Source: Candidatus Woesearchaeota archaeon (lineage in GTDB: Archaea > Nanobdellota > Nanobdellia > Pacearchaeales > GW2011-AR1). Taken from it: a stretch of 42,114 nucleotides of DNA. The notes beneath the pieces are model-generated. The model worked only from the letters and a program-made list of their open reading frames with translations, was not told the origin of the DNA and made no database searches. The position numbers and the translations under genes are program-made. Location: the NCBI GenBank assembly GCA_964354195.1, contig CAYGYN010000076.1:1-42114 (forward strand), given 5' to 3'. Of this stretch, positions 8,028 to 33,655 are shown one piece after another (positions within the stretch are counted from its first letter, which is position 1; each line of letters begins with the position of its first letter).

Positions 8028-8028
8028 G

Positions 8029-8481: not shown

Positions 8482-8617
8482 GTTAATCTATAACTACTAA
8501 AACTTGATGAAGGTTTTTAAATCTGTATTACTGAAATTAACTACCAACTTAGAGTGAAATTAAGATATTTTCTTTGAGCATAGATTATTTTATAAATAGA
8601 TTAAATGACTTATTTTA

Positions 8618-9712: not shown

Positions 9713-9714
9713 AA

Positions 9715-10875: not shown

Positions 10876-10877
10876 TT

Positions 10878-11846
10878 TTATCTCTCTGCTCGCATTTTCC
10901 AGCCTTCTTTTGTGCTGGTTTTCTTAAATTTAGACTTGATTTTGCTTATAAAAGTTGCTATTGTTGTTAGGAATATCCAATATGACACCATCAACCCTGC
11001 TTTAATTCCATATTTCCATGAATTCTTGAAAATATAAAATACAGAAGAGAAGTAATAGTTCTTCGGAAGAGGCATTTTTGTCTCCTTTAACTGCTCTCTT
11101 GCTATGCTTGTTCTCATTTTAAGCTTGAATAAATCTTTAATTGAGATTTTATCATAAACAGGAACAAATCTTGGAGCATCCTCGTTTTGTGAGATAACAA
11201 TTTGGTAGCCAGAATCCATTATATCCCGCGTTCTCTCAAAATCATCCCCGAGAGAGAGGTTTGGCTTGTAGAGAGTTCTTCGAAATATATTTGTAAGAAA
11301 CATTGTTGGCTCATTTAGATGGAGGAGATTGCCTTCTTTTCTTGTGAATGTCTTTTTCTGATATTCATACCATAATTGAGAGGAATAGGCAACCATTTTA
11401 AAACCGAGGTTTGATGATTTCATCTTGCTTTTTTCAAATTCAAGAGCATTATTCTCAGATATTCCGCCAATCTTCTTATTTTGGAAGATAGAAATAAACT
11501 CTCTAAGAGATTGTTTGTCTTTCACCTGGAAAATCCAATCAGCGTCGTTAATTATAACTATATCTCCTGTTGCCTGCTCGATTATTGTGTTTATGACTGC
11601 TGGCTTGCCCTGCCTTAGGTTTAGATTGAAGTGCTTGAATCTCTTTGATTTCATTTCAAATGATTTAACTATTTTCTCTGTACCATCTGTGCAGCCGTCC
11701 AAGCCAATTATGACTTCATAATTATCATAAGGCAGATTTGCAAGATTCTCCAATGTCTGGAATATGATTTTTTCTTCATTGTGGGCTGCAATAAGAAAAC
11801 TTATTTTCAATTCTTTATTCCCTGAGGTTTTTGCTTGTCTTTTCAT
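10878..11846 (-). CDS. glycosyltransferase family 2 with C-terminal membrane segments
   Basis: ISFLIAAHNEEKII, GLDGCTDGT and the INDAD (DxD) motif, with a hydrophobic C-terminus. Confidence 0.8.
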   Translation of the reverse strand: MKRQAKTSGNKELKISFLIAAHNEEKIIFQTLENLANLPYDNYEVIIGLDGCTDGTEKIVKSFEMKSKRFKHFNLNLRQGKPAVINTIIEQATGDIVIINDADWIFQVKDKQSLREFISIFQNKKIGGISENNALEFEKSKMKSSNLGFKMVAYSSQLWYEYQKKTFTRKEGNLLHLNEPTMFLTNIFRRTLYKPNLSLGDDFERTRDIMDSGYQIVISQNEDAPRFVPVYDKISIKDLFKLKMRTSIAREQLKETKMPLPKNYYFSSVFYIFKNSWKYGIKAGLMVSYWIFLTTIATFISKIKSKFKKTSTKEGWKMRAER

Positions 11847-11852
11847 TTTGTT

Positions 11853-12641
11853 TTACCTGAATTTATTGTGGATTTTCATCCAAGCAGGCATTTTATCATA
11901 TAATCCAACTACTTTCTTGAATGGAGAATTTAACAATCTTAGTCTCAGCATCGATAGAGCCATGAAAGGGCCTGAACGCAGGAAGTTTATTTTTGAATAC
12001 TCCTTGTCACTCCATCTTGTAGGTATTTCGGTAATCTTAAAATTATGCTTCCTGAGATTGTAAAGCAAATCAACATCAAATGCCCATTTTGTTACAAGAA
12101 GGGAGTCCACAATTTTCTTGAGGGCATATTTCTTGAATATCTTGGCTCCGCATTGCGTATCCCTATAAGGAAAGAGGAATAGAATTCTAATCCAGAGGTT
12201 AAATATCCTTGATGCAATGATTCTCTGCAGTGTTGGTTTCGGCTCGACTGCAGATTTTTTATGATAGCGGCTTGCAATAACCCCATCATAGTGTTTTATC
12301 TGAGAAGCAAGCCTGAAGAATTCTTTTGGCAGGGTGGACATGTCTGCATCTACAAAACCAACCAAATCAGAATTTTCCTTTAATTCATGCTTGAAACCCT
12401 GAATTATTGCATGCCCTTTGCCTCCTTCCTTAAGATTAAGATAGGTTATTCTCTTATTCTTTTTCCTGAAGGATTTGACAATCTTCCCAGTATTATCTGT
12501 TGTGCCATTTATAACCACAAGCAGCCTATAATCCAGCAATTTCTTCTTCCTTAATGCCTCAAACTCTTTTGAGTATTCCTTGAGTGTTTTACCTATGCGC
12601 TTCTCTTCGTTATAGGCAGGGATTATTATTGAGAGTTTCAT
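11853..12641 (-). CDS. GT2 dolichyl-phosphate hexose synthase-like enzyme (Alg5/AglD/Dpm1-like)
   Basis: MKLSIIIPAYNEEKRIGKTL, VVINGTTDNT, FVDADMS and TQCGAKIF are typical of Dol-P-Glc/Man synthases. Confidence 0.65.
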   Translation of the reverse strand: MKLSIIIPAYNEEKRIGKTLKEYSKEFEALRKKKLLDYRLLVVINGTTDNTGKIVKSFRKKNKRITYLNLKEGGKGHAIIQGFKHELKENSDLVGFVDADMSTLPKEFFRLASQIKHYDGVIASRYHKKSAVEPKPTLQRIIASRIFNLWIRILFLFPYRDTQCGAKIFKKYALKKIVDSLLVTKWAFDVDLLYNLRKHNFKITEIPTRWSDKEYSKINFLRSGPFMALSMLRLRLLNSPFKKVVGLYDKMPAWMKIHNKFR

Positions 12642-12682
12642 CTTATTTTTGCTGTTTTATAGTATTTTAATTATTTCTATAG

Positions 12683-13882
12683 TTACCTATCAAGGAGGAA
12701 TATAGAACCCCATAAAAAGATTGCGCTTGCAGTTATAAGGGCTATGGAGTATTCTATCATATTGGATGAAAAGAAGAACAAAAGGAAAATTTCTATTGCA
12801 GGAAATAAGAGGAAGATGAGATAGTTCTTAGTCTTGCCAATAGAGAGCTTATACAATAGGACAAGGTTTGTTATCGAGAGAAGGCTCATTGCTATCCCAA
12901 GATAAATAAGGATGTTCTGGGATTCAATGATTGTTCTTCCGGCATAGATGGTTATTAGCAGATTCGGGAAGAAATAAATCACCAAAAGAGCTATTAAGAT
13001 GCATGCGAGGATTATGCCCATTGCATTAAACAAGAGATGATGCTCGTTTGCCTGCTCTTTTTCTGCCGCTATTGGGAAAAGAGCCTTGCTTATTGGCTGA
13101 GTGCCCATAAATATGACTTTTGAGAGCATTGAAGCAATTGCATAATAGCCTGCTGTTGTTGCATCAAAGACAATTCTTGCAATTATTATGTCAATGCTGA
13201 AAAATACCATAATTGCAAATAAAATAGCAAAAACAGGCCATGAATAACTGTAAAATTCAGGGATTTTCATTGGCTTTTCTTTTAACTTTAGGATATCTCT
13301 CAGAGCCCAGAGAGAAAGCAAGAAAGCAATAACAAAGCCCACAATTGTTGCAAACATAGCGCCATAGACTTTCCAACCAAGGAAGACAAGCAATATTGCA
13401 AGCCCAAGCTTAACTATGGCTTCAATAACAAGATTTGTTCCTAGAGCTCGGAAGAGTTTCTTGCCTTGCAGGACTCCCCGGGTTATTGGGGGAAGGAATG
13501 CTGCAAATGTCATCAAGCCCGCGGATGAGACAAGAAGATAAGGAATTCTAAGCAAGAATGAAAGAGGTATGGCGGCGAAAATATAGACAATGAATATTAA
13601 TGAGGATATTGTCAATGCTTTTCTAAGTGAGAGCTTTAACAAGTCCTTAACTTTTTCTTTGGATTTTTCTGTGGCAGAATATTTTGCAATTATTGTCATC
13701 AAAGACTCGGAGAATATGCCTGAAAGATAAATGAATGAGAACAAAGTCGCTAAAACCCCATAATCTGCAGTAGTCAGCATTCTTGCCATTGCGAACTGGA
13801 AGAGGAAATTTATGACATTGAAGAGATTAAAAGTTATCAATAAAATTAGACTTCCGCCAATCAATGCCTTATTGAATTTCAT
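12683..13882 (-). CDS. oligosaccharide/polysaccharide flippase (Wzx/AglR-like, MOP superfamily)
   Basis: Polytopic membrane protein. The N-terminal FQFAMARMLTTADYGVL matches the 'polysaccharide biosynthesis protein' signature. It sits between AglH and the GT2 genes. Confidence 0.65.
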   Translation of the reverse strand: MKFNKALIGGSLILLITFNLFNVINFLFQFAMARMLTTADYGVLATLFSFIYLSGIFSESLMTIIAKYSATEKSKEKVKDLLKLSLRKALTISSLIFIVYIFAAIPLSFLLRIPYLLVSSAGLMTFAAFLPPITRGVLQGKKLFRALGTNLVIEAIVKLGLAILLVFLGWKVYGAMFATIVGFVIAFLLSLWALRDILKLKEKPMKIPEFYSYSWPVFAILFAIMVFFSIDIIIARIVFDATTAGYYAIASMLSKVIFMGTQPISKALFPIAAEKEQANEHHLLFNAMGIILACILIALLVIYFFPNLLITIYAGRTIIESQNILIYLGIAMSLLSITNLVLLYKLSIGKTKNYLIFLLFPAIEIFLLFFFSSNMIEYSIALITASAIFLWGSIFLLDR

Positions 13883-13883
13883 T

Positions 13884-14897
13884 TTAATGGAAAATTCCTT
13901 CTCTGAATATTATGAAGCCAATTGCAATTATTATTGCCTGAAATGCCCAAATCAGATAGACAACGCGCTTTTCTGTTGGTTTTATGCTGAGTTTCTTGAG
14001 AATTAGAATTGAGAGATGCGTCAAGCCATAAACTTTATCGTATAATAAGCCAAGTGAGCCGTCTTTCTGGGGCTTGCCAAATGAATATTTCACAAGCTTT
14101 CCGCGGGCTTTAAGAAAAACCTCAATAATGAATGGTATAAAAAAGAAAACAGCAATTTTTTCAAAGTTGCCGAGGATTGCTATTATTGCAATCATTGAGC
14201 CTATAGCATATGTCAGGACATCTCCTGGGAAAACTTTTGCGGGGGTGAAATTATAGAACAGGAATGCAAGAAGAGCAACAACCATACATAAGCCAATTAT
14301 TGCCAACCAGGAGTTTCCTGTTAAAAATGCAACTAGAGAGAGTGCGGAGAGAATTATTGCACCCATGCCTGCTTCCAAGCCATTAAAGCCTGCAAGGAAA
14401 TTGAAAGTTGTTGTTGCGCCGACAATGCCTAACGGAATCAATATTAATGGATAGAACAAACCAAAATCAAAACTGCCTATGCCTGGAAGAGACATTGTAT
14501 GCCTTCCTGCATTTATAGCCATGAGAGGTATAGAAGCAATTATCATCATAACAAGCCTTGTTCTTTTTGACACGCCCCCATGCTGCCAGCCAAGCAAATC
14601 ATCAATGAAACCAATGCCTCCTGCCAAGAGAACTACAGAAGAGAGAGAGATTATCTCAATAAGATGCGAGTTATCTTGAAGGACAAATGTTCTATAGGCC
14701 ACAAAGATGAACAAGGAGATGATAAATGCTGTTAGGACAACAATACCTCCTGAGCCTGCCACTTTTTCATTAGTTCGCTTATTCATGTCTTTCCACATTA
14801 AGCCTATCTGTTTTGCCTTCTTTATCCAGAGAGGCATGAAGAGCAAGACTATGAAAAAGCTTGCCAAAACCGGAATTGTTAATGTTAAGTCTGTCAT
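13884..14897 (-). CDS. aglH: UDP-GlcNAc:dolichyl-phosphate GlcNAc-1-phosphate transferase (MraY/WecA/Alg7 superfamily)
   Basis: Polytopic membrane protein with GFIDDLLG (DD motif) and NFLAGFNGLEAGMG (the NxxNxxDGxxGL-type motif). It has an ATGA overlap with aglB. Confidence 0.8.
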   Translation of the reverse strand: MTDLTLTIPVLASFFIVLLFMPLWIKKAKQIGLMWKDMNKRTNEKVAGSGGIVVLTAFIISLFIFVAYRTFVLQDNSHLIEIISLSSVVLLAGGIGFIDDLLGWQHGGVSKRTRLVMMIIASIPLMAINAGRHTMSLPGIGSFDFGLFYPLILIPLGIVGATTTFNFLAGFNGLEAGMGAIILSALSLVAFLTGNSWLAIIGLCMVVALLAFLFYNFTPAKVFPGDVLTYAIGSMIAIIAILGNFEKIAVFFFIPFIIEVFLKARGKLVKYSFGKPQKDGSLGLLYDKVYGLTHLSILILKKLSIKPTEKRVVYLIWAFQAIIIAIGFIIFREGIFH

Positions 14898-17776
14898 TGT
14901 CCTGCTATAGATAACTTGGGATCAGGATAAGGAATCTGAAGGTATTGGGGATTTGCCGTGATATTTTTAGGATAATTTATCTCCCAGATTCTTATCGGAC
15001 CCCTAAAACCACTATAATAAACAAAATCAGATTTTGTGACATTGTTCTCTTTCAGTTGTGCAACTACAAAATCATCCTCACTATGAACAAGCTTGAAATA
15101 ACTGTCATTCTCATTATATAAGTATAATCTTGCAAGCTGGGCTCTAACAGTTCTGTCTGAGAGATACATCAAAACCCCATCTTTATCTATTGAAATGCCG
15201 CCGCTCTGAGTCTGCCCAACATAAGGCATCAAGAATATGCCTACCTCCAAGCCAGAGCCAAAGTCTTTGAATTTCTGAGCCTCTGCATCGTAAGCATACC
15301 TCAAAGGCAGCCTGACTTGCTTGCCCTGATTGATGAAGACACCGATAGGATTTGTTGTCATATCTCCTGATTCATTTCTCTCGATAATTATTCCTATAAT
15401 TCCAGATTGCCCTTCCTTAGGTATGAATACTTTTGTGCCATTATTGTTATAGATAATATCGCCGTCAAGAGGGAATCCTCCTGAATAAACAAAGATAGTT
15501 AAATTCTTTGTTTCCTGTGTTTGCTTTGTGTCTTTCACGAAAGTGTTGAACCAGCTGAACCTGTCATAATTCTCATCAGAACCTATTGAAGAGAATGCAG
15601 AATACTTCCCTATATCTGTTGAATCTATCAGGAAGTGGGTTGTATTGTGCGTATATAAGAACTCAAGAGCCTCTGCATCGTTTGTGCCTGTCAGCGCATA
15701 TCTTCCCATGAGATGGTCCCAATAAGGTATTGAGTTTCCTCCATCAAGAACAGTTGCTCTTTCCCCTATTGATTGCAGCCAATAACCATAATCCCACCAA
15801 TGCCCAAAAACAGCATTTTCTGGAGTCGAGGTTCTTACCCAAGCCATTGCTTTCTGCCATTGCTGATTGTATGCTGAAGGAGCATAGCCTCTGGCTGTTG
15901 ATTCTGCTCCAAGATAGAATTGGTATCCTGCAAAAACCGTTGAGAGCAAAACGAGAATAACCAAACTCCATGCGATTACCTTTATAGTACCATCTTTTAC
16001 CTTCTTGACATCTGATAGTGAGGAAACAACAAAATAACCAATTATAATTGATGCTGGAGGAACTAACATCATTGTCAATCTTACAGCGCCCCTGGCTGCT
16101 ACAATGCATAGGAAGAAGAATGAGAATATCATCAAGAGCCCAAACTCTATCTCATTTAACTTATCAAGTTCGCCTGCTTTATTGTATTTGTGATAATAAT
16201 ATCCGAAACTACCCAATAATGCAATAAATCCAAGCCCGTAAACAAACAAGCTCTGCATATTTGTGCCGTTCATTGCACTATCGGGGGAATACCTGCTAAA
16301 GATTATGCAAATCAGGAAGAGCAGATAACCAAGAGTTACTATTATCCTCTCTTTCTTTTGGAAGACTCTGGACATCTTCCAGAATAGATAGACAGAACCT
16401 ATGAAGAAGAGCCAGAATGTTAGTGGAATGTTCCCGATTGTTGGTCCGAAACTTGATGCCCATTCACTGAAATATGGCTGTTTATTCTCCGCAACAGTAA
16501 CTCCAAGCCTGTCTGTAATTGGCGTGATAAGGTGCCCTTTTATATCCTCAGCTGCTCCCAAGAGAAAATGAGGTCCAAATAACAAAGTGACCGCTATGGT
16601 GCCAAGAAGAATTGCAACAATAATAGAAACAACAGGCTCAGGCAGCTTCTTTATTTTTTCATGCTCAAAATACCTCTTTAGGCTTGTCTTGAAAATCAAG
16701 AGATGGACGATTAATATGCCAAGAACTGCGAAAGAGATTGCTGTTGAAGGAGATTCCATCCAGCCAATCAGGGAATATCTTTGGGTGAAAGGCATAGTGA
16801 AAATAATTGCTGAAGCAAGCCAGAGAGCATATGTATAAACCTTGTTCAAGTCTGTCTGGTTAAGAAGGAATGCTAAGAATACTGCCAAGCCTATTGTTAT
16901 GAATATAAAAATATAACCTCCCCAGACAAGAGCCATGAGCGCTGTTGCAGCGCCTGCCAAAATGCCAAAGATTACTCTTGAATATAATTTCTCAGACTTC
17001 CATGAGCAGAGGAAGAAATAGAATGCAATGAACAAGAAAACAAAGCCAGTTGATTCTTTTTCAGGGATTCCGGCTATTGTTCTTGGAATGAATGCAGGTA
17101 TTACTGAAAGGAAGAACGAAGCGATAAGTGCTGCTATGCTTGCATTCTTATTTCCAAGAGATTCAATAAATATCTTCCTTACAAGAAGGAAGAATGCAAT
17201 GACTGTAAAACCAAACAGCACTGCAGGATAAATTGCTGCTGATTGCTCAACTGATGTGGAACCAAAATGAATCGCGATATTGTGGAACCAGGCAATCATA
17301 TAAGAAAGGAGATTAAGCTCGTGGGAGGTATCAAAGCCAAGAGGAACATATCTCATTGCATCGTGCACTATCAAAGTCCCATGGGCGACTATATATTTAG
17401 CCCAGCGCAGGAACAAGAAAGGATCTAAGTCCGGACCAAGAGTCCAGCCGCCTGTGGTTATATCTCTCAAGCCAGGAAGATTAAGGGTTCTTATGTAAAC
17501 TGCAACCCATGTCACCCAGGCGGCAAGAGGATAGAATGAAAAACTTGATTTGTTAAAATAAACTAAGAGGGCAGATAATGCAGAAAAAATGAATAGCATA
17601 AACCAGATTCCCGGGCTGAAGAAGCTGATTAGAGGGCCAACACCTATCTTTACAAGCCCGCTGAAGACAATAGAAACTATTGAGATTATCAGGAAAGTTG
17701 AGAGCAACTTGTCCTGCTTAAGGAAGCTTAGGAATTTTTCTTTCCTCTCCTCAAGAATTTCGTTCTCGTTTTCCAT
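14894..17776 (-). CDS. aglB: archaeal oligosaccharyltransferase AglB (STT3 family)
   Basis: 960 aa. An N-terminal polytopic domain is followed by a soluble C-terminal domain, and the catalytic WWDYGYW motif is present. Confidence 0.92.
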   Translation of the reverse strand: MENENEILEERKEKFLSFLKQDKLLSTFLIISIVSIVFSGLVKIGVGPLISFFSPGIWFMLFIFSALSALLVYFNKSSFSFYPLAAWVTWVAVYIRTLNLPGLRDITTGGWTLGPDLDPFLFLRWAKYIVAHGTLIVHDAMRYVPLGFDTSHELNLLSYMIAWFHNIAIHFGSTSVEQSAAIYPAVLFGFTVIAFFLLVRKIFIESLGNKNASIAALIASFFLSVIPAFIPRTIAGIPEKESTGFVFLFIAFYFFLCSWKSEKLYSRVIFGILAGAATALMALVWGGYIFIFITIGLAVFLAFLLNQTDLNKVYTYALWLASAIIFTMPFTQRYSLIGWMESPSTAISFAVLGILIVHLLIFKTSLKRYFEHEKIKKLPEPVVSIIVAILLGTIAVTLLFGPHFLLGAAEDIKGHLITPITDRLGVTVAENKQPYFSEWASSFGPTIGNIPLTFWLFFIGSVYLFWKMSRVFQKKERIIVTLGYLLFLICIIFSRYSPDSAMNGTNMQSLFVYGLGFIALLGSFGYYYHKYNKAGELDKLNEIEFGLLMIFSFFFLCIVAARGAVRLTMMLVPPASIIIGYFVVSSLSDVKKVKDGTIKVIAWSLVILVLLSTVFAGYQFYLGAESTARGYAPSAYNQQWQKAMAWVRTSTPENAVFGHWWDYGYWLQSIGERATVLDGGNSIPYWDHLMGRYALTGTNDAEALEFLYTHNTTHFLIDSTDIGKYSAFSSIGSDENYDRFSWFNTFVKDTKQTQETKNLTIFVYSGGFPLDGDIIYNNNGTKVFIPKEGQSGIIGIIIERNESGDMTTNPIGVFINQGKQVRLPLRYAYDAEAQKFKDFGSGLEVGIFLMPYVGQTQSGGISIDKDGVLMYLSDRTVRAQLARLYLYNENDSYFKLVHSEDDFVVAQLKENNVTKSDFVYYSGFRGPIRIWEINYPKNITANPQYLQIPYPDPKLSIAGQ

Positions 17777-22601: not shown

Positions 22602-22622
22602 GATATTTTTTCTTTATTGGAT

Positions 22623-23117
22623 ATGCTAAAAGAGGGAAAGAAGGCGCAGATACAGATATCATTCGGGATGATTTTCTCCATAATAATCATAATTGCCACG
22701 GTTGCTGTGGCTTTTTATGTAATAAACTACTTCCTGAAAATGAATGATTGCACCAAAGCGGGCTCGTTTTATGAATCGCTAAAAAACGAGGTTGAGAAGG
22801 CATATAATGGGGACATAACACAAAAAATATTCTCAAAGGCTGTTCCTTCTGGGGTAAAGAGTGTCTGCTTCGGCAATATGACCCAAGATTATACGAAGAC
22901 AGATGTAGAACAGCACGATTATATAACAAAATATGACATTAAGAACAATGTCCTGCTCTATCCTCCGGGAAAGGCATGCAATAATGAGCTTGCGTCATTC
23001 AATCTTGTGCATGCGACAACAAGCGGGTTCTTCTGCGTTCCTGTAAAATCAGGCGCGATAAGCGTGAAGCTAACAAAGGGCAGCTTTGATATTTTGGTAA
23101 AATTAAGCAAGCCATAG
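22623..23117 (+). CDS. type IV pilin-like protein with class III signal peptide (P1)
   Basis: N-terminus MLKEGKKA|QIQISFGMIFSIIIIIATVAVAF: a basic stretch, small residue, Q at +1, then a ~20 aa hydrophobic helix. The globular part has 4 Cys. Confidence 0.6.
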   Translation: MLKEGKKAQIQISFGMIFSIIIIIATVAVAFYVINYFLKMNDCTKAGSFYESLKNEVEKAYNGDITQKIFSKAVPSGVKSVCFGNMTQDYTKTDVEQHDYITKYDIKNNVLLYPPGKACNNELASFNLVHATTSGFFCVPVKSGAISVKLTKGSFDILVKLSKP

Positions 23118-23124
23118 GAACAAT

Positions 23125-24081
23125 ATGAATAGAAAAGGAATTGAGTTCAGTTTTGGTTGGATATTTGCGCTGATTATAGGGGCAGCAATAATCTTTCTTG
23201 CAGTATATGCTGCTGTGAAACTTGTTGGCACAGAAAGAACAGTGCAGTCGGCGGAACTCTCAAAGCAGCTTGATGTGATTTTGACACCAATTGAGACAGG
23301 TTATGAGAGCGGTAAGTCTGTCACACCACTTGAGTTCCCGAGCGAGACTCGAATTTATAACTATTGCACTCTCGAAGGCAATTTTGGGGCGCAGAAGATA
23401 ATTGTTGATGCAAGCTCAGGAATTGGCGGCAAATGGCAGAATGTGAATCTTTTAACTCCGTCTGTATCTTACAACAAATATGTCTTTTCAGCTTCTATAG
23501 TCCAAGGTAGAAAAGTTATGGTTTTCTCAAAACCATTTAACATGCCTTTCAAGGTGGCTAATCTTCTTTTTCTTTATGCAGACAAATACTGCTTTGTACA
23601 CACCCCGAGCGAGATAGAAAAAGAAGTAACCTCGCAAAGGATGCAGAACATAAACATCACAGATGATACTCCAGGAAGCTGCCCGAAGCAAAGCATAAGG
23701 GTTTGTTTTGCGGAAGATGTGGGCTGCAATATAACTGTGAATACAAACGAGAAAAGTGTTGAGAAAGGAAACAGTGTTGTCTATTATGAGGGCGGGCTTG
23801 TCTATGGAGCCATTTTTTCTTCACCTGACTTGTATGAATGCCAGGTTGCCAGATTAATGAAAAGGGCGTCTGAACTTGCGATGTTATATAACGCAAAGAG
23901 CGAGAACATTGCTGCTTCAACAGGGGGCTGCAGCTCGGAACTGCAGGGCTATCTGCAGAGTTTCGCAACTTTAACTGGGGGAACAAACAGCTCCATGGCG
24001 CTAAGGGAAATATTCTTCATGGCTGAGGAGATAAAAGCAAAGAATAGCGGGATAACTAAATGCAAGCTATGGGAGGAATGA
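23125..24081 (+). CDS. type IV pilin-like protein with class III signal peptide, large member (P2)
   Basis: MNRKG|IEFSFGWIFALIIGAAIIFLAVYAA, followed by a ~290 aa Cys-containing domain. Confidence 0.6.
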   Translation: MNRKGIEFSFGWIFALIIGAAIIFLAVYAAVKLVGTERTVQSAELSKQLDVILTPIETGYESGKSVTPLEFPSETRIYNYCTLEGNFGAQKIIVDASSGIGGKWQNVNLLTPSVSYNKYVFSASIVQGRKVMVFSKPFNMPFKVANLLFLYADKYCFVHTPSEIEKEVTSQRMQNINITDDTPGSCPKQSIRVCFAEDVGCNITVNTNEKSVEKGNSVVYYEGGLVYGAIFSSPDLYECQVARLMKRASELAMLYNAKSENIAASTGGCSSELQGYLQSFATLTGGTNSSMALREIFFMAEEIKAKNSGITKCKLWEE

Positions 24082-24581
24082 TGGCAAGAAAAGCGCAGAT
24101 GAAGGTGCAGGAAATGGCTTTTGTTCTAGTGGCTATAGTGATATTCTTCATCATGGTAACATTGGTTTATCTTGCCATAAGGATGTCTACCTTAAAGGAA
24201 GATGTGACAAGCCAAAGGGAAGAAGCTGCAAAAGAGCTTGCGCGGAAACTCGCAGACATACCTGAGTTCTCATGGGCTGCTTCTGGCTGCTCAGGCTGCC
24301 TTGACATGGATAAATTGCTTGTGCTGAAAGACAGGGCTGCCTACAAGAATTTCTGGGATATTGATTATCTAATGATAGAAAATGTCTACCCTAACAAAAC
24401 AGACGTGGAGTGCACAAAAGCCAATTACCCTGATTGCAGAACAATAACCATTGTCAATAACACTAATTATTTCGGGAGCCCTGCAAGCGCATTTGTTGCG
24501 CTTTGCAGGCTTGAATCGAGTGAAGGAGGGTATGCCAAATGCGAGCTTGGAAAAATACACGCAGGGAGCAAGGCAATATGA
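24078..24581 (+). CDS. type IV pilin-like protein with class III signal peptide (P3)
   Basis: MMARKA|QMKVQEMAFVLVAIVIFFIMVTLVYLAI. It has an ATGA overlap with P2. The longer ORF start at 24060 lies inside P2. Confidence 0.6.
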   Translation: MMARKAQMKVQEMAFVLVAIVIFFIMVTLVYLAIRMSTLKEDVTSQREEAAKELARKLADIPEFSWAASGCSGCLDMDKLLVLKDRAAYKNFWDIDYLMIENVYPNKTDVECTKANYPDCRTITIVNNTNYFGSPASAFVALCRLESSEGGYAKCELGKIHAGSKAI

Positions 24582-25084
24582 TAAGAAGGGCAAGGAGAGG
24601 GCAGGAAGAAATAGTGGGTTTTGTGCTTATAGTTGTGCTTGTGGCTGTTATTTTCCTTGTTTTCTTAGGACTAGCAATAAGAAGGGAAGCACCTGCAACA
24701 ACAAAAGACAGCAGGGATGTTTTCCAGTTCCTTGAGAGCTTGTCCGAGTATACTACGGACTGCGCAATAAGCTCTGTGCCTGCATATTCCAACATTAGGG
24801 GATTGATAAAAGAATGCTACGACAAGGCACAATGCACTTCAGGGAAGAGTGCATGCCAAGCATTAAACCGAACTCTAAGAGAGGCTATTGATGCAAGCTG
24901 GAAAGTTGGCAAAGACCGTCCTGTAAAAGGATATTCACTTAATTCCACTTATTACTCAGAAGCAAGAACAGAGCAGGTTATGCTAATTAATGCGGGAAAT
25001 TGCACAGGAACAATTATAGGCTCAGAAAAAGCATTTAGCGTGACTCCGGGAACAATTTCAACAACATTAAAGATATGCTACTAA
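24578..25084 (+). CDS. type IV pilin-like protein with class III signal peptide (P4)
   Basis: MIRRARRG|QEEIVGFVLIVVLVAVIFLVFLGLAI. It has an ATGA overlap with P3. The domain is Cys-containing. Confidence 0.6.
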   Translation: MIRRARRGQEEIVGFVLIVVLVAVIFLVFLGLAIRREAPATTKDSRDVFQFLESLSEYTTDCAISSVPAYSNIRGLIKECYDKAQCTSGKSACQALNRTLREAIDASWKVGKDRPVKGYSLNSTYYSEARTEQVMLINAGNCTGTIIGSEKAFSVTPGTISTTLKICY

Positions 25085-25838: not shown

Positions 25839-28241
25839 GTGAAATTTAATTTCAAAAAGATTGCATCTGTAATAGCAAGCACAGTTATGCTCAGCTCAAC
25901 AGTGGCACTCGCCGCTGCAGCCAACTACCCATCACCATTCGTACAGAACGGTGTTGCTGATGTTGCTGTGGTCTATGGCGCAAATGCGGCTCAAACCGAC
26001 TTGGTCGCTGCAACTGACATAACAGCTAGCTTAAATTCAGGAATATTAACACAGGTTACAACAGGTGGAGTATCACAAGCCACAGGTGGAGACGCGGTCA
26101 AACTTGCAAGAACAAGTGACTTAGTCGACCTTGGAAATGATGTAAACGTAGTATTTAGTAAGTCAGTCACTAAAGATGACTTAAAGACCTTACTTGCTGA
26201 CGGAACATACTTGAACGACGCAAACAGCGAGTACAAGTATGAACAAAAAATCAACCTTGGTAGCCTTAACATGAGCTTCTTCGCAGATAGTGATTATAAG
26301 AATAAAGAGCCCACAGTCGGCTTCAAGTTAGCTGACGGTGTTAGAGTAATGAACTATACCCTTGACTTTACTACTAATGCTGAATCATCAGTTTCCACAG
26401 CAGGAGACTTGACAGACTTAGAAACCACTGACATATCAATATTAGGAAAGGACTATTATATCTTAGACGCAAAGAATGCAACAGCAGCAGGTACATACCT
26501 TGGAACATTCACATTGCTTGATTCTGCAAACTCAGTTGTTGTCACAGAAGGCGAGAGCCAGACAGTAACTGTAGGAGGCAAGCCATACACAATATCAGTC
26601 GCTTATATCGCTGACAATAAAGTCAAGCTTGATGTAAACGGCGAGATGACAAACGTATTGACAGCTACTACAACTACAACATTCAAGTTGGAGGATGGCA
26701 CATATGTAGGCATCAAAGAGATATTGTACAACTCCAAAGAGAGTGGAGTAAGCAAGGTAGAGATGAGCATAGGTTCTGGAAAATTGGAAATTTCCTCAGG
26801 AAATGACGTTGAACTCAACGACGACTCTATATCTGGCCTTAAGGGCTATATATTCAGAGGAAGCCTATCGGGAGGAAAGGAGACAATGGACAAGATAGTC
26901 CTTACATGGGATACTGACGACACAATGTTCGTAAGTCCGACTTCAGACTTAGTAATGCCAGGATTTAATGCAGTCAAGCTTTCAATGGGAGACTTTATAG
27001 TCCCTAAGAAGGAATTGGCTGAAGTGAATTATGATGGCGACGACAGTATATCATTAGTAGTGCCTATCAAAGATGGGACTGCTGATTTCAATATATTGTA
27101 TGCTAACTCTAACGGCGCGTTCATAGGACTTGGAAAATCTGTTGATGAACAATTGACTACAGGAGCTACATCATTGCTCGTGAACCTGACTTCAGGCGAC
27201 CGAGACAAGTGGTTTGTTGCTTCATGGAACTCAACCAAAGATGCTGAGTCCTACTTGTTATCTGCAAGCATAGAAGAGAAAGATGGCAAGAATAGAACAA
27301 CAATCAAGAATGAAGTGACTGGAAATAATGTTTGCGAGGATAAAGCTAATGGCGATGTCTGTCAGTTTGGCAGCGTAAGCCTTAACATTATCGGCGTCAA
27401 CAAAACAGGAAGCAACAAGTGGGTTACAATGACAGGAGGTTCGGGAGTATCCTTTGATAAAGTATACACCACGGACGGCTTGAAGATTGCATTGCCACTA
27501 ATGTCAACTATTAATGATACTGTTGTTGATGGAGAAATCTTCCTCAACAGCACCGCCGGAGGTATTGGAGGTGCTCCTGGACACAATAATAATACATATT
27601 ATTTGTTCATGACAGAAATGGATAAGGATGACAATGTTGCAAAGGGAATAAAGTTCAATGCTACATTAGGACACGATAGCGATGGAAATGTACATGTCAC
27701 AACATTTGACACTGGACAAACCAAGCTTGATGTACCTGGTTCAAGTGATGACCAAGTAAGCATGGTCGTATCAGACTTAGCTACAAAGGTCACAAGAACA
27801 GTCAGCTCAGACAAAGGAAAACTTCAGGTTGAATACCATGGAGGAGAATCCTATGCTGACGTATTCCTTACTTCATTGGAGGCGCAAGTCTCAACAAGCG
27901 GAAGCACTGCTAAAGTATTGCCTATAAAAGACTCAGAAGCAGCATCAGTAACAGCTAATAACTTGGTTGTTGTTGGTGGAAGCTGTATTAACAGCGTTGC
28001 TGCTGATTTACTTGGAGGCGCTCTTTGCGGAGCTGACTTTGAGGCTAAGACAGGTGTTGGAGCTGGAGCATTCCTTATCGAGACATTCTCTCGCACAGGA
28101 GGCGGAGTTGCAACACTAGTTGCTGGTTACAATGCAGAGGACACAACAAGTGCAGCCAAGTATTTGACTACCAAAGTTGTTGACACATCTGTCGGCAGCG
28201 TGGTAACAAAGAAGTCTGTTACTTTTGAAGCCCTAGCTTAA
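25839..28241 (+). CDS. S-layer protein (Methanococcales-type S_layer_N / S_layer_C architecture)
   Basis: GTG start 10 nt after the Shine-Dalgarno-like AGGGGGT (25822-25828), with an in-frame TAA 2 codons upstream. Signal peptide MKFNFKKIASVIASTVMLSSTVALAAAA. N-domain NYPSPFVQNGVADVAVVYGANAAQTDLVAATDI. C-terminal NLVVVGGSCINSVAADLLGG. About 10 N-x-S/T sequons. Confidence 0.8.
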   Translation: MKFNFKKIASVIASTVMLSSTVALAAAANYPSPFVQNGVADVAVVYGANAAQTDLVAATDITASLNSGILTQVTTGGVSQATGGDAVKLARTSDLVDLGNDVNVVFSKSVTKDDLKTLLADGTYLNDANSEYKYEQKINLGSLNMSFFADSDYKNKEPTVGFKLADGVRVMNYTLDFTTNAESSVSTAGDLTDLETTDISILGKDYYILDAKNATAAGTYLGTFTLLDSANSVVVTEGESQTVTVGGKPYTISVAYIADNKVKLDVNGEMTNVLTATTTTTFKLEDGTYVGIKEILYNSKESGVSKVEMSIGSGKLEISSGNDVELNDDSISGLKGYIFRGSLSGGKETMDKIVLTWDTDDTMFVSPTSDLVMPGFNAVKLSMGDFIVPKKELAEVNYDGDDSISLVVPIKDGTADFNILYANSNGAFIGLGKSVDEQLTTGATSLLVNLTSGDRDKWFVASWNSTKDAESYLLSASIEEKDGKNRTTIKNEVTGNNVCEDKANGDVCQFGSVSLNIIGVNKTGSNKWVTMTGGSGVSFDKVYTTDGLKIALPLMSTINDTVVDGEIFLNSTAGGIGGAPGHNNNTYYLFMTEMDKDDNVAKGIKFNATLGHDSDGNVHVTTFDTGQTKLDVPGSSDDQVSMVVSDLATKVTRTVSSDKGKLQVEYHGGESYADVFLTSLEAQVSTSGSTAKVLPIKDSEAASVTANNLVVVGGSCINSVAADLLGGALCGADFEAKTGVGAGAFLIETFSRTGGGVATLVAGYNAEDTTSAAKYLTTKVVDTSVGSVVTKKSVTFEALA

Positions 28242-28363: not shown

Positions 28364-28918
28364 ATGAATAACCTTAGAAAGATAGAAAGCAGAGAGGAAA
28401 TGGAAAGAAAGAGAAAAAGGAATACTCTATTCTTGAGCATTATCATGATATCAATACTTGTGTTCAGCACAGCAGGCTATTTTGCATTTAAGGACGATAG
28501 TGACACGCAGAGCAATACAGAGGGAGTGCAGAACATGGGAGGAGACTCATGGGTCTTCAAATATGGCGAGCAGACAGTAAAACTTAGCAATTCCCCGGAA
28601 AGCGTGAAGAACATAACTGTCTTCGTCAACGAGGACATTTCTTCATATTCAGGCAAGATAGTTTATGTTGCCTCTGAGAATGATGCGGGCTTGTATGAAA
28701 TTTATTCTGCGCTGTCAGGATATGCTGGGCGCGTCCAGCCGGCATGCTATGGAAAGTGCACTAAGGACTTGCCAGAGAAAGAGTGCAATGAAACCATGAT
28801 TGTGGTAAAGCCTGCAAATGCAACAGATATGGTTTATCAAAAAGACAGCTGTGTGTTCATAGAAGGGGATTTAAAGGCTGTTGATGCTTTCCTCTATAAG
28901 ATATATGGGATAATATAA
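28364..28918 (+). CDS. N-terminally membrane-anchored extracytoplasmic protein, 4 Cys, unknown function
   Basis: A basic N-terminus and a single TM (LFLSIIMISILVFSTAGYFAF). A TATA-like ATTTTTAAAG lies about 25 nt upstream. Confidence 0.55.
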   Translation: MNNLRKIESREEMERKRKRNTLFLSIIMISILVFSTAGYFAFKDDSDTQSNTEGVQNMGGDSWVFKYGEQTVKLSNSPESVKNITVFVNEDISSYSGKIVYVASENDAGLYEIYSALSGYAGRVQPACYGKCTKDLPEKECNETMIVVKPANATDMVYQKDSCVFIEGDLKAVDAFLYKIYGII

Positions 28919-28919: not shown

Positions 28920-29588
28920 ATGGCTAAAAGAATAAAACGAGACAAAGAAACACATATTGATAAGGGAATAAAGAGATATCTCCCCCTTATTATCTCTCTT
29001 GCTGCCTTGGCAGTTATTTTCCTCGTTCTCTATTACTTCTTCCAGGGAATGGGCAAGGTTGAATACCAAGGATTAACCTTTATCAAGCAGAAGTTTGGAA
29101 GCATACAGGTTTACACTTACAGTTACCTTGTGAAGAGCCCTGATGGGAAAATTCTTCAGAATACACTTTACCTCAGACTAGACCCAAGCAAGAACAAGGT
29201 GCCTGTTGAGGGAGAGATAATTTACAGAGAAGGCATGCTAACTTACATCAGCATTAATGCCACGGAACTAAGTAAATGCAATGACAGCATGATTTCTGTT
29301 GCAAATCTGGTTAATTTCCTTTCGAATAACAATATCAAAGTAAAGGGAGGAACTCCTGACAAGCAGGAAGCGCAGAATAACAACCAGACATATGTCAACT
29401 GCAATAATTATCCCCTGAATACAGTCATACTTCTAACTGAGGGAGATGAGACAAAGATAACAAAGCAGAATAATTGCTACATTGTAAGCGCAAACAACTG
29501 CGAGATTCTGCCGGCTGTGGAGAAGCTTATAGTCCAGTCAATTCTTGATGCAAGAGTATACAACTCAGGAAAAGAGGCGAAAGCCTGA
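28920..29588 (+). CDS. N-terminally membrane-anchored extracytoplasmic protein, 4 Cys, possible paralogue of the preceding gene
   Basis: A single TM (LPLIISLAALAVIFLVLYYFF). The start is 1 nt after the upstream stop. The C-terminal C-N..T-[VM]-I-[LV]...C-[YV]-[IF]...AV-[ED] pattern is shared with the 184-aa neighbour. Confidence 0.55.
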   Translation: MAKRIKRDKETHIDKGIKRYLPLIISLAALAVIFLVLYYFFQGMGKVEYQGLTFIKQKFGSIQVYTYSYLVKSPDGKILQNTLYLRLDPSKNKVPVEGEIIYREGMLTYISINATELSKCNDSMISVANLVNFLSNNNIKVKGGTPDKQEAQNNNQTYVNCNNYPLNTVILLTEGDETKITKQNNCYIVSANNCEILPAVEKLIVQSILDARVYNSGKEAKA

Positions 29589-30020
29589 GTAAGTTATCAG
29601 AGTTACGATTATTCCTGCAAGAACTGCCCCGAGGGCAATATAAGCAAATGATTTCTTCTTATCCATACCAAGGGCCCAGGAGCCCAGGGCAGCTGTATAA
29701 ACCCCTGTGAATGGCAGAGGTATTGCAACAAATATCATCAAGCCGATGTAGCCATATTTCTCAATTTGTCTGTGAATCTTGTGCCTTGCTCTTTCCAAGA
29801 CCTTATGGAATAATTTGTTGTACCATTGCATGTGGAGGAACAGATTGTTCAAATATTCCAGAAAAATAAATATTAACGGGACAATGAGTATATTTGCCAG
29901 AGTGCAAATCAAGAAAGCAGTTAAAGGATTTAATCCATAGGCAATTGCAAGAGGAATTCCCCCCCTTAGCTCAGAGATTGGCAGCATGCTAAGCAAAATT
30001 ATCTCAAGAAGATTATTCAT
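29565..30020 (-). CDS. small membrane protein of the COG2426 / 'putative small multi-drug export' family
   Basis: MLPISELRGGIPLAIAYGLNP is the signature N-terminus of that family as I recall it. It has 4 TM segments and an ATGA overlap with the sortase-like gene. Confidence 0.55.
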   Translation of the reverse strand: MNNLLEIILLSMLPISELRGGIPLAIAYGLNPLTAFLICTLANILIVPLIFIFLEYLNNLFLHMQWYNKLFHKVLERARHKIHRQIEKYGYIGLMIFVAIPLPFTGVYTAALGSWALGMDKKKSFAYIALGAVLAGIIVTLITYSGFRLFS

Positions 30021-30547
30021 TGTTTGCCTCTCTTTATGCTATGAAAGATATTTTTTAAATCTGTGTATCCGGGAATTGCCTTTATCTCGAAGAGATAAAC
30101 ATTTGCGAACCAGATAGCTACAACAAGAACAGTTGAACCGAAATTCCAGACAAGCTTATGGGTGAAATCAAAATATTGGTCTCCTGTTATGAACAATGCT
30201 GCAAAAACAACAATGCGCAGGATGTTAAGAACTAAGAGGGAGAGAATAGTGAAACCAAGGCTTTTTGCCCTTATTTTTGGCTTCAAGGGGGTTGCAAGGT
30301 TCAAGATTAAGAGCAGATAATATGCAGAGCCTGCAATGCAGGCAGGAATAAGCTGGATTGAATAGCTGTTGAATATAAGGCATTCATTGGATAAGGTTAT
30401 TCCATGATAGAAAATGCTGAGAATCCAGTAAACAGGATAAACTGTAAGTGGTGTGAAGATAAAGTAAAAGATAAGCATGCCAGGCAGGGCTATCAGGACA
30501 AGAAATAGGTAACGCAGGAATAATTTCAACGTATCTTCAAGGTTCAT
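30017..30547 (-). CDS. minimal exosortase/archaeosortase family protein (176 aa)
   Basis: Polytopic membrane protein with the Cys...Arg...His catalytic pattern at family-typical spacing: IPACIAGSAYY, then ~43 aa, then LNILRIVVF, then ~22 aa, then FTHKLVWNFGS. Confidence 0.65.
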   Translation of the reverse strand: MNLEDTLKLFLRYLFLVLIALPGMLIFYFIFTPLTVYPVYWILSIFYHGITLSNECLIFNSYSIQLIPACIAGSAYYLLLILNLATPLKPKIRAKSLGFTILSLLVLNILRIVVFAALFITGDQYFDFTHKLVWNFGSTVLVVAIWFANVYLFEIKAIPGYTDLKNIFHSIKRGKQ

Positions 30548-30587
30548 AAAGAATCAAAGCAAAAGAGATTTATAAGCTATCCCAAAA

Positions 30588-32540
30588 CTATCTCTTCAGA
30601 ATTCTGACAGCAAGAACAATTATCAGGATAATCAAGATTAAGTTTATGCCGCCGATTATCCAAAGCAAGGTCTTGTTTCCAGTGAACAGGCCTGAAAGTG
30701 AAGATGTCCAGCTTGAGCCTTCTTCTATAGTTACTGCAACTGACTTTGAGTCTATCTTGTCGCCTGCTTTTGTCTCGATTGTGAAGGTTTTCTCTCCTGA
30801 AACGCCAGCATCAACTGCGAATGTGAATTGGACTTCTCTGCTCTCGCTTCCATTCAACGTCAATATCCTGTCTGAAATTGACTTCAATGTTGCCCATGAT
30901 TCAAAGTCTTTTGCATCAACAACAAAGGTATTCTTCCCTATGGCAAGGTTCTTTATCAAAGCTGTAATGACAAGTTCCTGTCCTGCTTTTGCTTCACTAT
31001 CCAATGAGGCAGTTATTTCTGTAAGGGGCTTGCTTGTAGCATTGGTTGTTCCGCCTATTCCGCCAGCAACTGTTATCCTTGCTTCCCATGTTGTGTCTGA
31101 ATGGTCTGTGTACAAGTCAGATGATTTCTTGTAATCAAAGTATGTGTCTAATTTCAGGGTATAAACTCCATTTTCTGCAGTGTAAGGCACAACAAATGAG
31201 AAGTCAACAGGCTCTGAATCTCCGCTGTCAAGAGAGAAGGATGAAGACTCGATATTCAAGCCAAGCTTTGAATTGTAGAGTGTTACTTTTACCTTTGTCT
31301 GGTCCTCTGTTCCTATGTTGTAGGCTCTTGTGCTGACATGAACAGTATCGCCTGTCTGCACAACAAGCTCTGGAGAGACAACTATCTCATCTTCATTCAA
31401 AACAATGTCCTTTGATTTCTTTGTTATGGAAATTGAGTCTACCGAACTATCTGGAACATCTGTGGCTTCATAGGAATTGCAATATGAGCTTTCTTTGCCG
31501 CTTACATATGCCTTGACATAAAGAGAGTATCTTCCATCTGAGTCTTCAACATCTACAGGCACTTGGAATTCGAACTTGACTGTCTCTGAATCTCCATCGT
31601 CTATTGAAACTTCCTGCTCAAGATAATTATCACCATCTAATTCTATGAAATCCTTATCTTCTGTATCATAGAGTGCAAGCCTGACAACAAAATCCTTGTC
31701 CTTGCCAATATCATTTCCGACATCCACTTCGATTTCAACATTGTCAAGAGGCTTCCATTCCCATTCATTATCTGTATCAGAAGAAACATCTGATATATCT
31801 TCTATAGTGACTTTTGTGGCATTGATATTCCCATTCTTGCAATAAACGCCCATGATTGTAAATCCCTGTGTGTCATTTGCAATAGGATAGTCCAAATCTT
31901 TTGCAAGCACAGTTATGCTGTGGTCGCCCAACTCCAAATCATTGATATTCTCAAGAGAATTTATATTGACAGTTGTTGAGCTGCCGGCGCTAAGCGCAAA
32001 GTTATTCTTTGAGAATGAGACGTTAATTCCTCCTGAATATGTAAGGTTTATGTGGTTGAGAGCAGTATTTCCTGTATTTGTGACTGTCATGGTGGCATTC
32101 TGTTGTGAATTCAAATCTGTTGGGTCCGAGATATCAAGTGAATAGGTATTATTTATTGGAACAGAGAATGATATTACCTCGTTTGAGCCTGTGCCACTTG
32201 GGTCAGCAGTTATTGTGAATGTAAGTGTGCCTGACTGATGGGCAGTGAAAGAAACTGTTTCGGTAAATGTCTTTGTTTCATTTGCAACAAGAGAAGTATC
32301 TGTTGGCAGGGTTATTGTTGCGCTTCCTGATGTCACAGAAGAGGTCCATGTGATTGGAGAAGCGTCAAGTCCTGTGTTTGTAATATTGAACACGACTGAG
32401 AATGAACCTGCATCATGCAAAACGCTTGCTGGCTCAGAAACTACTGCTGAAGAAAGACTTGCAGCGCTTGCAAAGCCTGCTATAAGAAATACTGACAGAA
32501 TTGCAACCAAAAATAATGGGAAATGTTTTGATGTTTTCAT
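30588..32540 (-). CDS. secreted surface glycoprotein with repeated CARDB/Ig-like beta-sandwich modules and a C-terminal TM sorting signal
   Basis: Signal peptide MKTSKHFPLFLVAILSVFLIAGFASA. Recurrent '..V.V.N.G...' modules (FSVVFNITNTG, MTVTNTGNTAL, RAYNIGTED, LIKNLAIGKNT). Many N-x-S/T sequons. The C-terminus is SSLSGLFTGNKT-LLWIIGGINLILIILIIVLAV-RILKR. Confidence 0.65.
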   Translation of the reverse strand: MKTSKHFPLFLVAILSVFLIAGFASAASLSSAVVSEPASVLHDAGSFSVVFNITNTGLDASPITWTSSVTSGSATITLPTDTSLVANETKTFTETVSFTAHQSGTLTFTITADPSGTGSNEVISFSVPINNTYSLDISDPTDLNSQQNATMTVTNTGNTALNHINLTYSGGINVSFSKNNFALSAGSSTTVNINSLENINDLELGDHSITVLAKDLDYPIANDTQGFTIMGVYCKNGNINATKVTIEDISDVSSDTDNEWEWKPLDNVEIEVDVGNDIGKDKDFVVRLALYDTEDKDFIELDGDNYLEQEVSIDDGDSETVKFEFQVPVDVEDSDGRYSLYVKAYVSGKESSYCNSYEATDVPDSSVDSISITKKSKDIVLNEDEIVVSPELVVQTGDTVHVSTRAYNIGTEDQTKVKVTLYNSKLGLNIESSSFSLDSGDSEPVDFSFVVPYTAENGVYTLKLDTYFDYKKSSDLYTDHSDTTWEARITVAGGIGGTTNATSKPLTEITASLDSEAKAGQELVITALIKNLAIGKNTFVVDAKDFESWATLKSISDRILTLNGSESREVQFTFAVDAGVSGEKTFTIETKAGDKIDSKSVAVTIEEGSSWTSSLSGLFTGNKTLLWIIGGINLILIILIIVLAVRILKR

Positions 32541-32757: not shown

Positions 32758-33141
32758 ATGGCAATAAGGGCGAGAGAAAATGTCGTGGGTGCATGGGCGT
32801 TCCTTGCGGGAGTTGTGCTTGCGATATTAGTAGGGGTTTTTGCAGGCGACAAAATCAATCCTCTTATTCTATGGGTTCTTGTTGGCTTGGGACTTGTCGT
32901 GGGCTATTTTGTGCCTGAGAAAAGCATCCAGACTTTCTTGATAGCCTCTGTTTCCTTAGTTATAGTAAGTTATATAGGGATGTCAGGCATGGTGCTAAAT
33001 GCAGCAATAAGCGGAGTGCAGATAGGGAAGATGATATCCTCGATTCTTGGCACACTCTTAATGTTATTTGTTCCCGCAACAATCCTTGTAGCCCTTAAGA
33101 CAGTATTCTCAATTTCTGCGATACGCGCCGAGAAGGAATAG
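32758..33141 (+). CDS. hypothetical membrane protein (about 4 TM)
   Basis: The ORF is hydrophobic throughout. No family recognised. Confidence 0.5.
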   Translation: MAIRARENVVGAWAFLAGVVLAILVGVFAGDKINPLILWVLVGLGLVVGYFVPEKSIQTFLIASVSLVIVSYIGMSGMVLNAAISGVQIGKMISSILGTLLMLFVPATILVALKTVFSISAIRAEKE

Positions 33142-33271: not shown

Positions 33272-33655
33272 TTATCCGCCTAGAAAGTCTGTTCTCTTTT
33301 CCTTTGCTGGAGCTGCAGGCGCCTTGTGGATGTCTGCAAACTGAGGGGTTGCGATTATTACGCTCTCTCCAAAACCGGCAATCTTGCCTTCAATTGCATC
33401 GATTGTCTTTTTTATCTTTGCCACTGCTCTCTTGAACTCAATTATGTCCTTGCTCTTTAAAGGCTTGGTGTCAATGACTGCAATTGTATATCCTTCCCTC
33501 AAAGCATTAAGAATTGGGTTGATATCGTCGAACTCGCGAAGCATAAAAGGCTTCACAATTACCTTATTATCGTTTGCCTGTGCAGCGTTAAGGTCGATTT
33601 CAACATATTCATCAGACTCATCTTTGCCAAACAACTTTTTTAAGCTAAACGCCAT
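33272..33655 (-). CDS. sepF: cell division protein SepF (archaeal FtsZ anchor)
   Basis: N-terminal amphipathic MAFSLKKLFGK, then YVEIDL...VKPFMLREFDDINPILNALREGYTIAVIDTKPL...GKIAGFGESVIIATP. This matches the DUF552/SepF core. Confidence 0.7.
   Translation of the reverse strand: MAFSLKKLFGKDESDEYVEIDLNAAQANDNKVIVKPFMLREFDDINPILNALREGYTIAVIDTKPLKSKDIIEFKRAVAKIKKTIDAIEGKIAGFGESVIIATPQFADIHKAPAAPAKEKRTDFLGG

Follow-up and report, generated by a model that had tools for sequence, protein, structure and literature searches.

In Haloferax volcanii the archaeosortase ArtA acts on surface glycoproteins that end in a PGF-CTERM signal, a PGF motif followed by a hydrophobic transmembrane (TM) fragment and a basic stretch (PMC9263693). 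Cleavage of the signal is coupled to lipid attachment and needs Cys173 and the archaetidylethanolamine-synthesis genes pssA and pssD, and the authors propose a thioester intermediate that is resolved by the ethanolamine amine (PMC7157517; PMC12186497). C173, R214 and R253 are the residues of the enzyme that experiments showed to be critical (PMC9263693). We analysed a related locus in a 42,114-nt stretch of contig CAYGYN010000076.1 (assembly GCA_964354195.1) from a Candidatus Woesearchaeota archaeon; this whole stretch is called the window below. Three open reading frames (ORFs) on its minus strand, of 650, 176 and 151 amino acids (aa), encode a substrate precursor (30588..32540), a pacearchaeosortase (30017..30547) and a membrane protein of the Pfam family PF06695 ('Sm_multidrug_ex'; 29565..30020). 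All three had been recognised in an earlier note on this DNA, and homologues of each of the three proteins occur in dozens of independent contigs.

The earlier note took the enzyme and its substrate for a new sorting system. The system is already catalogued, since the NCBIfam models NF033505 and NF033506 cover the enzyme and exactly this substrate, including its tail. The 176-aa protein matches NF033505 (pacearchaeosortase) with 207.3 bits against a cutoff of 80, residues 7-171 aligning to positions 2-166 of the 167 in the model. The 650-aa protein matches NF033506 (PACE-CTERM-PROT, 'putative S-layer protein') with 467.1 bits against a cutoff of 110, residues 5-650 aligning to positions 2-627 of 627. 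Both proteins are thus far above the cutoffs at full length, and the adjacency of the genes, the tail and the lineage, metagenome-assembled genomes (MAGs) of Pacearchaeota-type DPANN archaea, are also those of the catalogued system. Nothing essential differs. The window proteins are new sequences, the substrate is without a second conserved cysteine pair, and the PF06695 gene is co-directional with the sortase gene and overlaps it, a layout confined to the window's clade. The name pacearchaeosortase, which the note had put forward, is the right one, and some NCBI records already carry it; a literature search for pacearchaeosortase or PACE-CTERM found no paper. We consider it likely that the locus belongs to this pacearchaeosortase/PACE-CTERM system of Pacearchaeota-type DPANN archaea, with the pathway and the role for the PF06695 protein that are set out below.

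The sortase, its substrate and the sorting signal

The sortase belongs to the exosortase/archaeosortase superfamily. It matches the superfamily signature TIGR04178 over residues 66-148 (28.4 bits against a cutoff of 23), and the three motifs listed in the earlier note, PACIAG (68-73), NILRI (108-112) and FTHK (128-131), are all present. C70, R111 and H130 in these motifs, together with N83 and N108, do not vary among 25 homologues (48-64% identity). Cys70 (codon 30340-30338, minus strand) is the candidate nucleophile, and Arg111 (30217-30215, minus) follows it at a spacing of 41, equal to that of C173 and R214 in ArtA; the conserved His130 is encoded at 30160-30158 (minus). The family is large, with more than 1,290 database clusters at E <= 1e-3, some of them named pacearchaeosortase by NCBI. 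The nearest sequence is 91% identical to the window's sortase and the nearest species representative 60%.

ArtA is about twice the size of this enzyme and has many substrates. The description 'much smaller than ArtA' is true, but the size is not unusual, as several curated exosortase and archaeosortase models (XrtH, XrtR, XrtX, XrtY and ArtE) run to only 153-168 positions. These minimal enzymes match the same core region of the sortase weakly, with 17-20 bits against cutoffs of 86-170, and have other cognate signals and occur in other taxa. ArtE is the only archaeosortase model touched (18 bits against a cutoff of 95), and no ArtA model matches. We rejected the idea of a truncated or degenerate sortase, because the whole family is 171-200 aa long and its model has 167 positions.

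Hydropathy indicates several TM segments in the sortase, as it does in the PF06695 protein, and an AlphaFold2 model of the sortase is all-helical (predicted local distance difference test score 79, predicted template modelling score 0.69). Together they support a polytopic enzyme. Hydropathy, the positive-inside rule and the model would place C70, R111 and H130 in the outer leaflet, where C70 would begin a helix, R111 would be part of one and H130 would belong to an outer loop. Neither a sequence profile nor Foldseek found a relative of the sortase with a solved structure in the PDB (best E = 0.87).

The earlier note had suggested one enzyme dedicated to one substrate, and gene context supports this. 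We fetched 80 loci from species-representative genomes by way of the sortase, the MAG titles naming Pacearchaeota, Woesearchaeota or Nanoarchaeota. A homologue of the 650-aa protein lay upstream on the same strand as the sortase in 73 of the 80, or 73 of 74 informative loci. In five of the seven exceptions the sequence upstream of the sortase is shorter than 360 nt, and in one a scaffold gap filled with Ns adjoins the sortase; only the seventh, a single-cell genome, is truly without an upstream target. All 61 full-length upstream neighbours match NF033506, with the C-terminal tail conserved among them. A regular expression written for this tail picked out exactly one ORF in each locus, always of the target family, and one ORF in the 42-kb window. 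The reciprocal test, a metagenome scan that started from a narrower alignment of the tail alone, returned 65 tail-bearing ORFs, all 65 of the target family, and the sortase follows the target in each of the 55 with enough downstream sequence. Within the reach of local gene context, the one-enzyme/one-substrate relation is thus upheld. Searching a database of 5.8 billion proteins with a tail-only profile yielded 12 short contig-edge fragments and was uninformative on the number of substrates per genome.

The single-cell genome, SCGC AAA011-D5 (locus L052), is unusual in other ways. Its sortase ORF (L052:5587-6480, plus strand) carries an N-terminal extension of about 110 aa, no target gene lies within 5.5 kb upstream, and a DedA gene directly follows the sortase. 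This layout is either a rearrangement or an amplification chimera.

The target itself is a putative S-layer-type surface protein. Its hydropathy profile has an N-terminal signal segment at 9-27 (a Sec-type signal peptide, about residues 1-27) and a C-terminal TM segment at 625-643. The CARDB and Ig-like modules reported earlier are there, CARDB with 35 bits against a Pfam threshold of 22.7, together with weak Ig-like matches. The accompanying description of the protein as a sequon-rich glycoprotein does not stand as a statistical claim: 11 N-x-S/T sites compare with 8.7 +/- 2.5 expected from composition (p = 0.23), so the target is not enriched. At residues 396 and 495, 59 of the 61 homologues have cysteine in both columns, likely a second disulphide pair. 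The window's protein has threonine and isoleucine there and keeps only the first pair, C234 and C354.

The protein ends in the tripartite tail that the earlier note described, SGLFTGNKT-LLWIIGGINLILIILIIVLAV-RILKR, in which the TM segment 625-643 is followed by RILKR. There is no PGF in the tail, and it is distinct from the PGF-, PEF-, VPXXXP- and PIP-CTERM signals, as had been claimed. The recognition motif had been placed in the juxtamembrane SGLFTGNKT, but conservation there is only the protein average. Measured as mean pairwise column identity across the 61 targets, it is 0.32 for the whole protein, 0.32 for residues 601-624 and 0.54 for the TM helix 625-645, and the most conserved 21-aa segment of the entire protein starts at residue 626 (0.55).

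Column counts in the 61 homologues define a sorting signal at residues 616-650, encoded at 30591..30695 on the minus strand. Its core lies inside the TM helix, W627-x-x-G630-x-x-N633-x-x-L636-x-x-x-I640, and is followed by the basic tail R646...K649-R650. W627 is kept in 56 of the 61 sequences, G630 in 49 (with alanine in a further 9), N633 in 53, L636 in 56, I640 in 60 and an arginine or lysine at 646 in 60; the two terminal basic residues are also nearly invariant. A looser G-[ILF]-[ST]-G element is found about 10 residues upstream, and the window's signal has a juxtamembrane G-x-x-x-G stretch. The position of a polar asparagine and a tryptophan on one face of the helix suggests recognition inside the outer leaflet.

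ArtA and the window's sortase are polytopic Cys/Arg enzymes of the same superfamily, both act on a surface glycoprotein that ends in a motif, a TM helix and a basic tail, and both are genetically associated with lipid-related genes. In H. volcanii PGF stands ahead of the helix, whereas here the signature (W..G..N..L...I) is inside it; ArtA has its many substrates, whereas this enzyme has a single one encoded beside it; and the partners of ArtA are PssA and PssD, whereas those of the window's family are DedA or PF06695 proteins and PAP2.

The gene slot after the sortase

The earlier note had placed all three window genes in one operon. The sortase stop and the PF06695 start do overlap in ATGA, seen as ...AAACAATGAATAAT.... 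One operon for all three genes is uncertain, because a TATA-like TTATAAAT stands before the sortase, at 30575..30568 (minus), about 25 nt upstream of its ATG and inside the 40-nt spacer that separates it from the target gene (30548..30587, minus). The element is a candidate archaeal promoter that may give a separate, leaderless sortase-PF06695 transcript, in which case the abundant substrate and the sortase-PF06695 pair would perhaps be transcribed separately.

The third protein clearly belongs to PF06695, which it matches with 135.8 bits against a gathering score of 30.7, as do all 20 of the 20 neighbours of this type. PF06695 has been placed in the DedA superfamily by remote-homology analysis (bioRxiv 10.1101/2020.12.18.423352). 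The VTT_dom model of that superfamily reaches the window's protein with E = 1.7e-4 and 22.5 bits, below its gathering score of 33.9, and touches only 3 of the 20 PF06695 members. No relatives of the DedA-type or PF06695 proteins were found in the PDB.

Of 121 loci across the family, 100 have a DedA-superfamily gene of one type or the other beside the 3' end of the sortase gene (60 of 76 from genomes, 40 of 45 from metagenomes). The classical DedA/VTT type (PF09335, 80.6 bits) occupies this slot in 42 genome and 24 metagenome loci and is always co-directional with the sortase. Of the 41 genome loci in which the gap between the two was measured, 39 fall between -11 and +38 nt; in the metagenome set, 23 of 24 lie between -7 and +31 nt. 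PF06695 is found in 18 genome and 16 metagenome loci, in most of them convergent with the sortase, the 3' ends overlapping by 9-45 nt. Neither type is present in 16 genome and 5 metagenome loci, and no locus in either set has both. About 18.5 joint loci would be expected under independence against the 0 observed (P = 6e-16, phylogenetic non-independence ignored).

The two types are scattered over the family and are not confined to clades. On a neighbour-joining tree of 1,075 concatenated columns (100 bootstraps, 9 PF06695 taxa), 7 DedA/PF06695 switches are required (6-8 in the bootstraps), close to the 8.2 of a random distribution. The window's own layout, with PF06695 co-directional and the start and stop overlapping, recurs in locus L001 and in three other relatives whose sortases are as little as about 62% identical, and is a conserved variant of the window's clade. 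The tight coupling that the earlier note saw between sortase and third gene therefore holds within this clade and not family-wide, where a classical DedA or an opposite-strand PF06695 gene usually takes the slot. PF06695 as a family-wide operon partner was rejected on the same grounds.

DedA proteins are lipid flippases, and UptA and PA4029 move undecaprenyl phosphate, as shown in bacteria only. The best curated match of the DedA-type neighbour is UptA, at 131 bits over the full length, a score below the equivalog cutoff. PetA, a DedA protein recognised through its operon with pssA/psd, moves phosphatidylethanolamine, again shown in bacteria only. It groups with UptA in sequence, and similarity of this kind therefore does not tell which lipid is transported.

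A PAP2 protein (PF01569, 77 bits; about 205 aa) is encoded on the opposite strand between target and sortase in 30 genome and 24 metagenome loci, for example at L005:5335-5952 (minus), and its best NCBIfam match is the undecaprenyl-diphosphatase SepP, below the cutoff. Loci with a DedA-superfamily gene have PAP2 somewhat more often (45 of 100) than loci without one (4 of 21; p = 0.03, with no correction for phylogeny). The window itself has neither PAP2 nor a classical DedA.

Bacterial lipid-carrier recycling and phosphatidylethanolamine transport by UptA and PetA, with PAP2 undecaprenyl-diphosphatases, are a close parallel. The alternative neighbour, the DedA type, is UptA-like over its full length, the PAP2 protein resembles an undecaprenyl-diphosphatase, and PetA too was identified by operon linkage. 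They differ in that the scores here fall below the equivalog cutoffs, in that archaeal lipids (dolichol or archaeol) would take the place of the bacterial ones, and in that no sortase link has been described for them. We found nothing in the searchable literature that links exosortases or archaeosortases functionally to DedA.

A proposed pathway and its alternatives

We propose that the 650-aa protein would be exported by Sec and lose its signal peptide. Its Ig-like ectodomain would probably be N-glycosylated by the AglB encoded 12 kb away, and the protein would first be held in the membrane by its C-terminal helix. The sortase would recognise this helix in the outer leaflet through the W-x-x-G-x-x-N face and the basic tail. 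By homology with ArtA, Cys70 would attack near the start of the helix to form a thioester, releasing helix and tail, and a membrane lipid would then receive the new C-terminus to give a lipid-anchored protein; this lipid would most likely be an archaeal phospholipid that bears an amine. The PF06695 protein would most likely be a flippase for polyprenyl (dolichyl) phosphate or phospholipid that serves maturation of the surface glycoprotein. Every step after export is one that we infer, with a mechanism borrowed from ArtA.

Several points weigh against this picture. Our inference of cleavage, of its site and of lipid attachment leans on ArtA, no more than a distant relative, whose third critical residue is Arg253, where the candidate here is His130. 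The homology between PF06695 and DedA was not reproduced with local profiles, hhalign giving a probability of 0.9%, no better than negative controls, and neither the UptA nor the SepP match reaches its curated cutoff. No DedA-superfamily gene lies beside the sortase in 21 of the 121 loci, so it is not required in cis, and in most PF06695 loci the gene is convergent and hence transcribed apart from the sortase. Synteny extends over the entire region, with L11, SepF, prefoldin and an S-layer gene, so that adjacency by itself is weak evidence of function.

The DedA/PF06695 slot suggests that the surface-protein cluster is linked to a step in which a lipid or lipid carrier is transported. We tentatively favour the view that the product of the slot gene helps to recycle the dolichyl (polyprenyl) phosphate carrier used in surface-protein glycosylation. 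This is the leading reading because an undecaprenyl-diphosphatase-like PAP2 often accompanies the slot gene, and the UptA-like match of the DedA-type neighbour supports it too. The stronger claim, that pacearchaeosortases work with a dedicated lipid transporter, either an UptA-like DedA or PF06695, the two being mutually exclusive and repeatedly exchanged at the same position, seems to us rather unlikely.

The synteny itself offers the likeliest alternative. The third gene might be a housekeeping membrane gene that is functionally unrelated to the sortase and is kept near it by the strong conservation of the region. The locus is accompanied about as often by the unrelated genes for L11, L37Ae, prefoldin beta and SepF, the slot gene is missing from the same 21 loci, and its orientation varies, being convergent in most PF06695 loci. 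It is hard to explain in this way why one transporter should repeatedly take the place of another, distantly related one at this very slot, with 6-8 switches, or why start/stop overlaps should persist down to about 60% sortase identity, and we think this explanation somewhat unlikely.

That the two transporter types exclude each other and have repeatedly changed places at the slot could instead mean that the DedA-superfamily protein serves the sortase directly, as a sortase-flippase module in which a lipid co-substrate, for example host-derived archaetidylethanolamine, is flipped outward to resolve the thioester. The ATGA coupling in the window, and the 4-8-nt overlaps or 1-nt gaps of most DedA-type loci, fit such a module, as does locus L052, which retains sortase and DedA though the target is absent upstream. 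ArtA processing depends on genes for archaetidylethanolamine synthesis, which in Methanosarcina lie in synteny with artA, and PetA, a phosphatidylethanolamine flippase, shares an operon with pssA/psd. Against this, both the PAP2 match and the UptA-like one point to polyprenyl-phosphate carriers and not to phospholipids. The convergent PF06695 genes are not co-transcribed, the gene is missing from 17% of loci, and the searchable literature offers no functional link between such enzymes and DedA. A direct partnership is unlikely in our view, and carrier recycling remains the reading we lean to for the slot gene.

The weakest alternative is that the sortase is a protease only, clipping the TM anchor to release the protein or hand it to non-covalent S-layer attachment with no lipid added; the window has no PssA/PssD lipid-synthesis gene, DPANN archaea are generally thought to lack lipid synthesis, and a second, anchor-less S-layer-type protein is encoded next door, but ArtA couples cleavage to lipidation and the family retains the Cys and Arg of transpeptidase-type sortases, so we regard it as very improbable. 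DPANN archaea are generally thought to take lipids from their hosts.

Surrounding genes and significance

Unbiased clustering of the neighbours gave the order L11, L37Ae, prefoldin beta, SepF, a 127-aa membrane protein, target, PAP2 where present, sortase and one further gene, the slot gene. Beyond the slot, two conserved membrane-anchored proteins and an 800-aa S-layer-type protein are encoded convergently. In the window the 800-aa protein (25839-28241, plus strand) is of the S_layer_MJ/S_layer_C type and has a signal peptide and no C-terminal anchor. The other two, of 184 and 222 aa (28364-28918 and 28920-29588, both plus), are membrane-anchored and without a known family. The three genes run towards the sortase cluster, and 53-73 of the 80 loci conserve them. 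The envelope could have two components, an anchor-less canopy and a sortase-anchored protein.

On the other side, the target gene is flanked by the divergent gene for the 127-aa multi-TM protein (32758-33141, plus), which has no known family and is conserved in 48 loci, and by a SepF homologue (33272-33655, minus; PF04472, 35.6 bits). Cell-division and envelope genes are thus kept together here. Ribosomal protein L11 (34643-35401, minus; 189 bits on residues 3-158) carries a C-terminal extension of about 90 aa rich in Ala, Pro, Gly, Glu and Lys, and its homologues in related loci are also long, with a median of 228 aa.

An N-glycosylation/polysaccharide (agl) cluster occupies 4565-17776. It encodes a PMT_2-type glycosyltransferase (4565-6256) and, 12-17 kb from the sortase locus, a Wzx-like flippase (12683-13882), a GT4 phosphosugar transferase (13884-14897) and the 960-aa AglB/STT3 (14894-17776), along with several further glycosyltransferase-like ORFs. 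Between this cluster and the sortase locus, four consecutive small proteins of 166, 318, 173 and 181 aa (22617-25084, plus) each have a basic N-terminus and one hydrophobic segment. They have no Pfam or NCBIfam match and could be envelope proteins or, with a class III signal peptide, pilin-like; a cluster conserved in 30 loci includes the last of them.

Overall, the window holds an ordinary, already catalogued sorting system with one moderately interesting and testable side observation, the slot gene. The enzyme/substrate pair is a further member of a family that NCBI annotation already names, and it would be named automatically. The position of the signal core, the alternating DedA/PF06695 partner and the PAP2 neighbour, all three seen by comparative genomics, appear to be undescribed so far. 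The core embedded in the helix (W..G..N..L...I) is unlike PGF-type signals and offers precise residues for mutation.

If pacearchaeosortases did work with a dedicated transporter, this would be the first genetic link between an exosortase or archaeosortase and a flippase. PF06695, a family without known function, would be isofunctional with DedA flippases, and the slot genes would be candidates for the archaeal step that brings the anchoring lipid or the recycled dolichyl phosphate to the right leaflet. No archaeal factor for lipid or dolichol-carrier handling in surface-protein maturation surfaced in the literature we searched. The recurrence of a DedA or PF06695 transporter and PAP2 beside the sortase offers a testable function for PF06695, and makes DedA, PF06695 and PAP2 proteins candidates for lipid or dolichol-carrier handling in the maturation of DPANN surface proteins.

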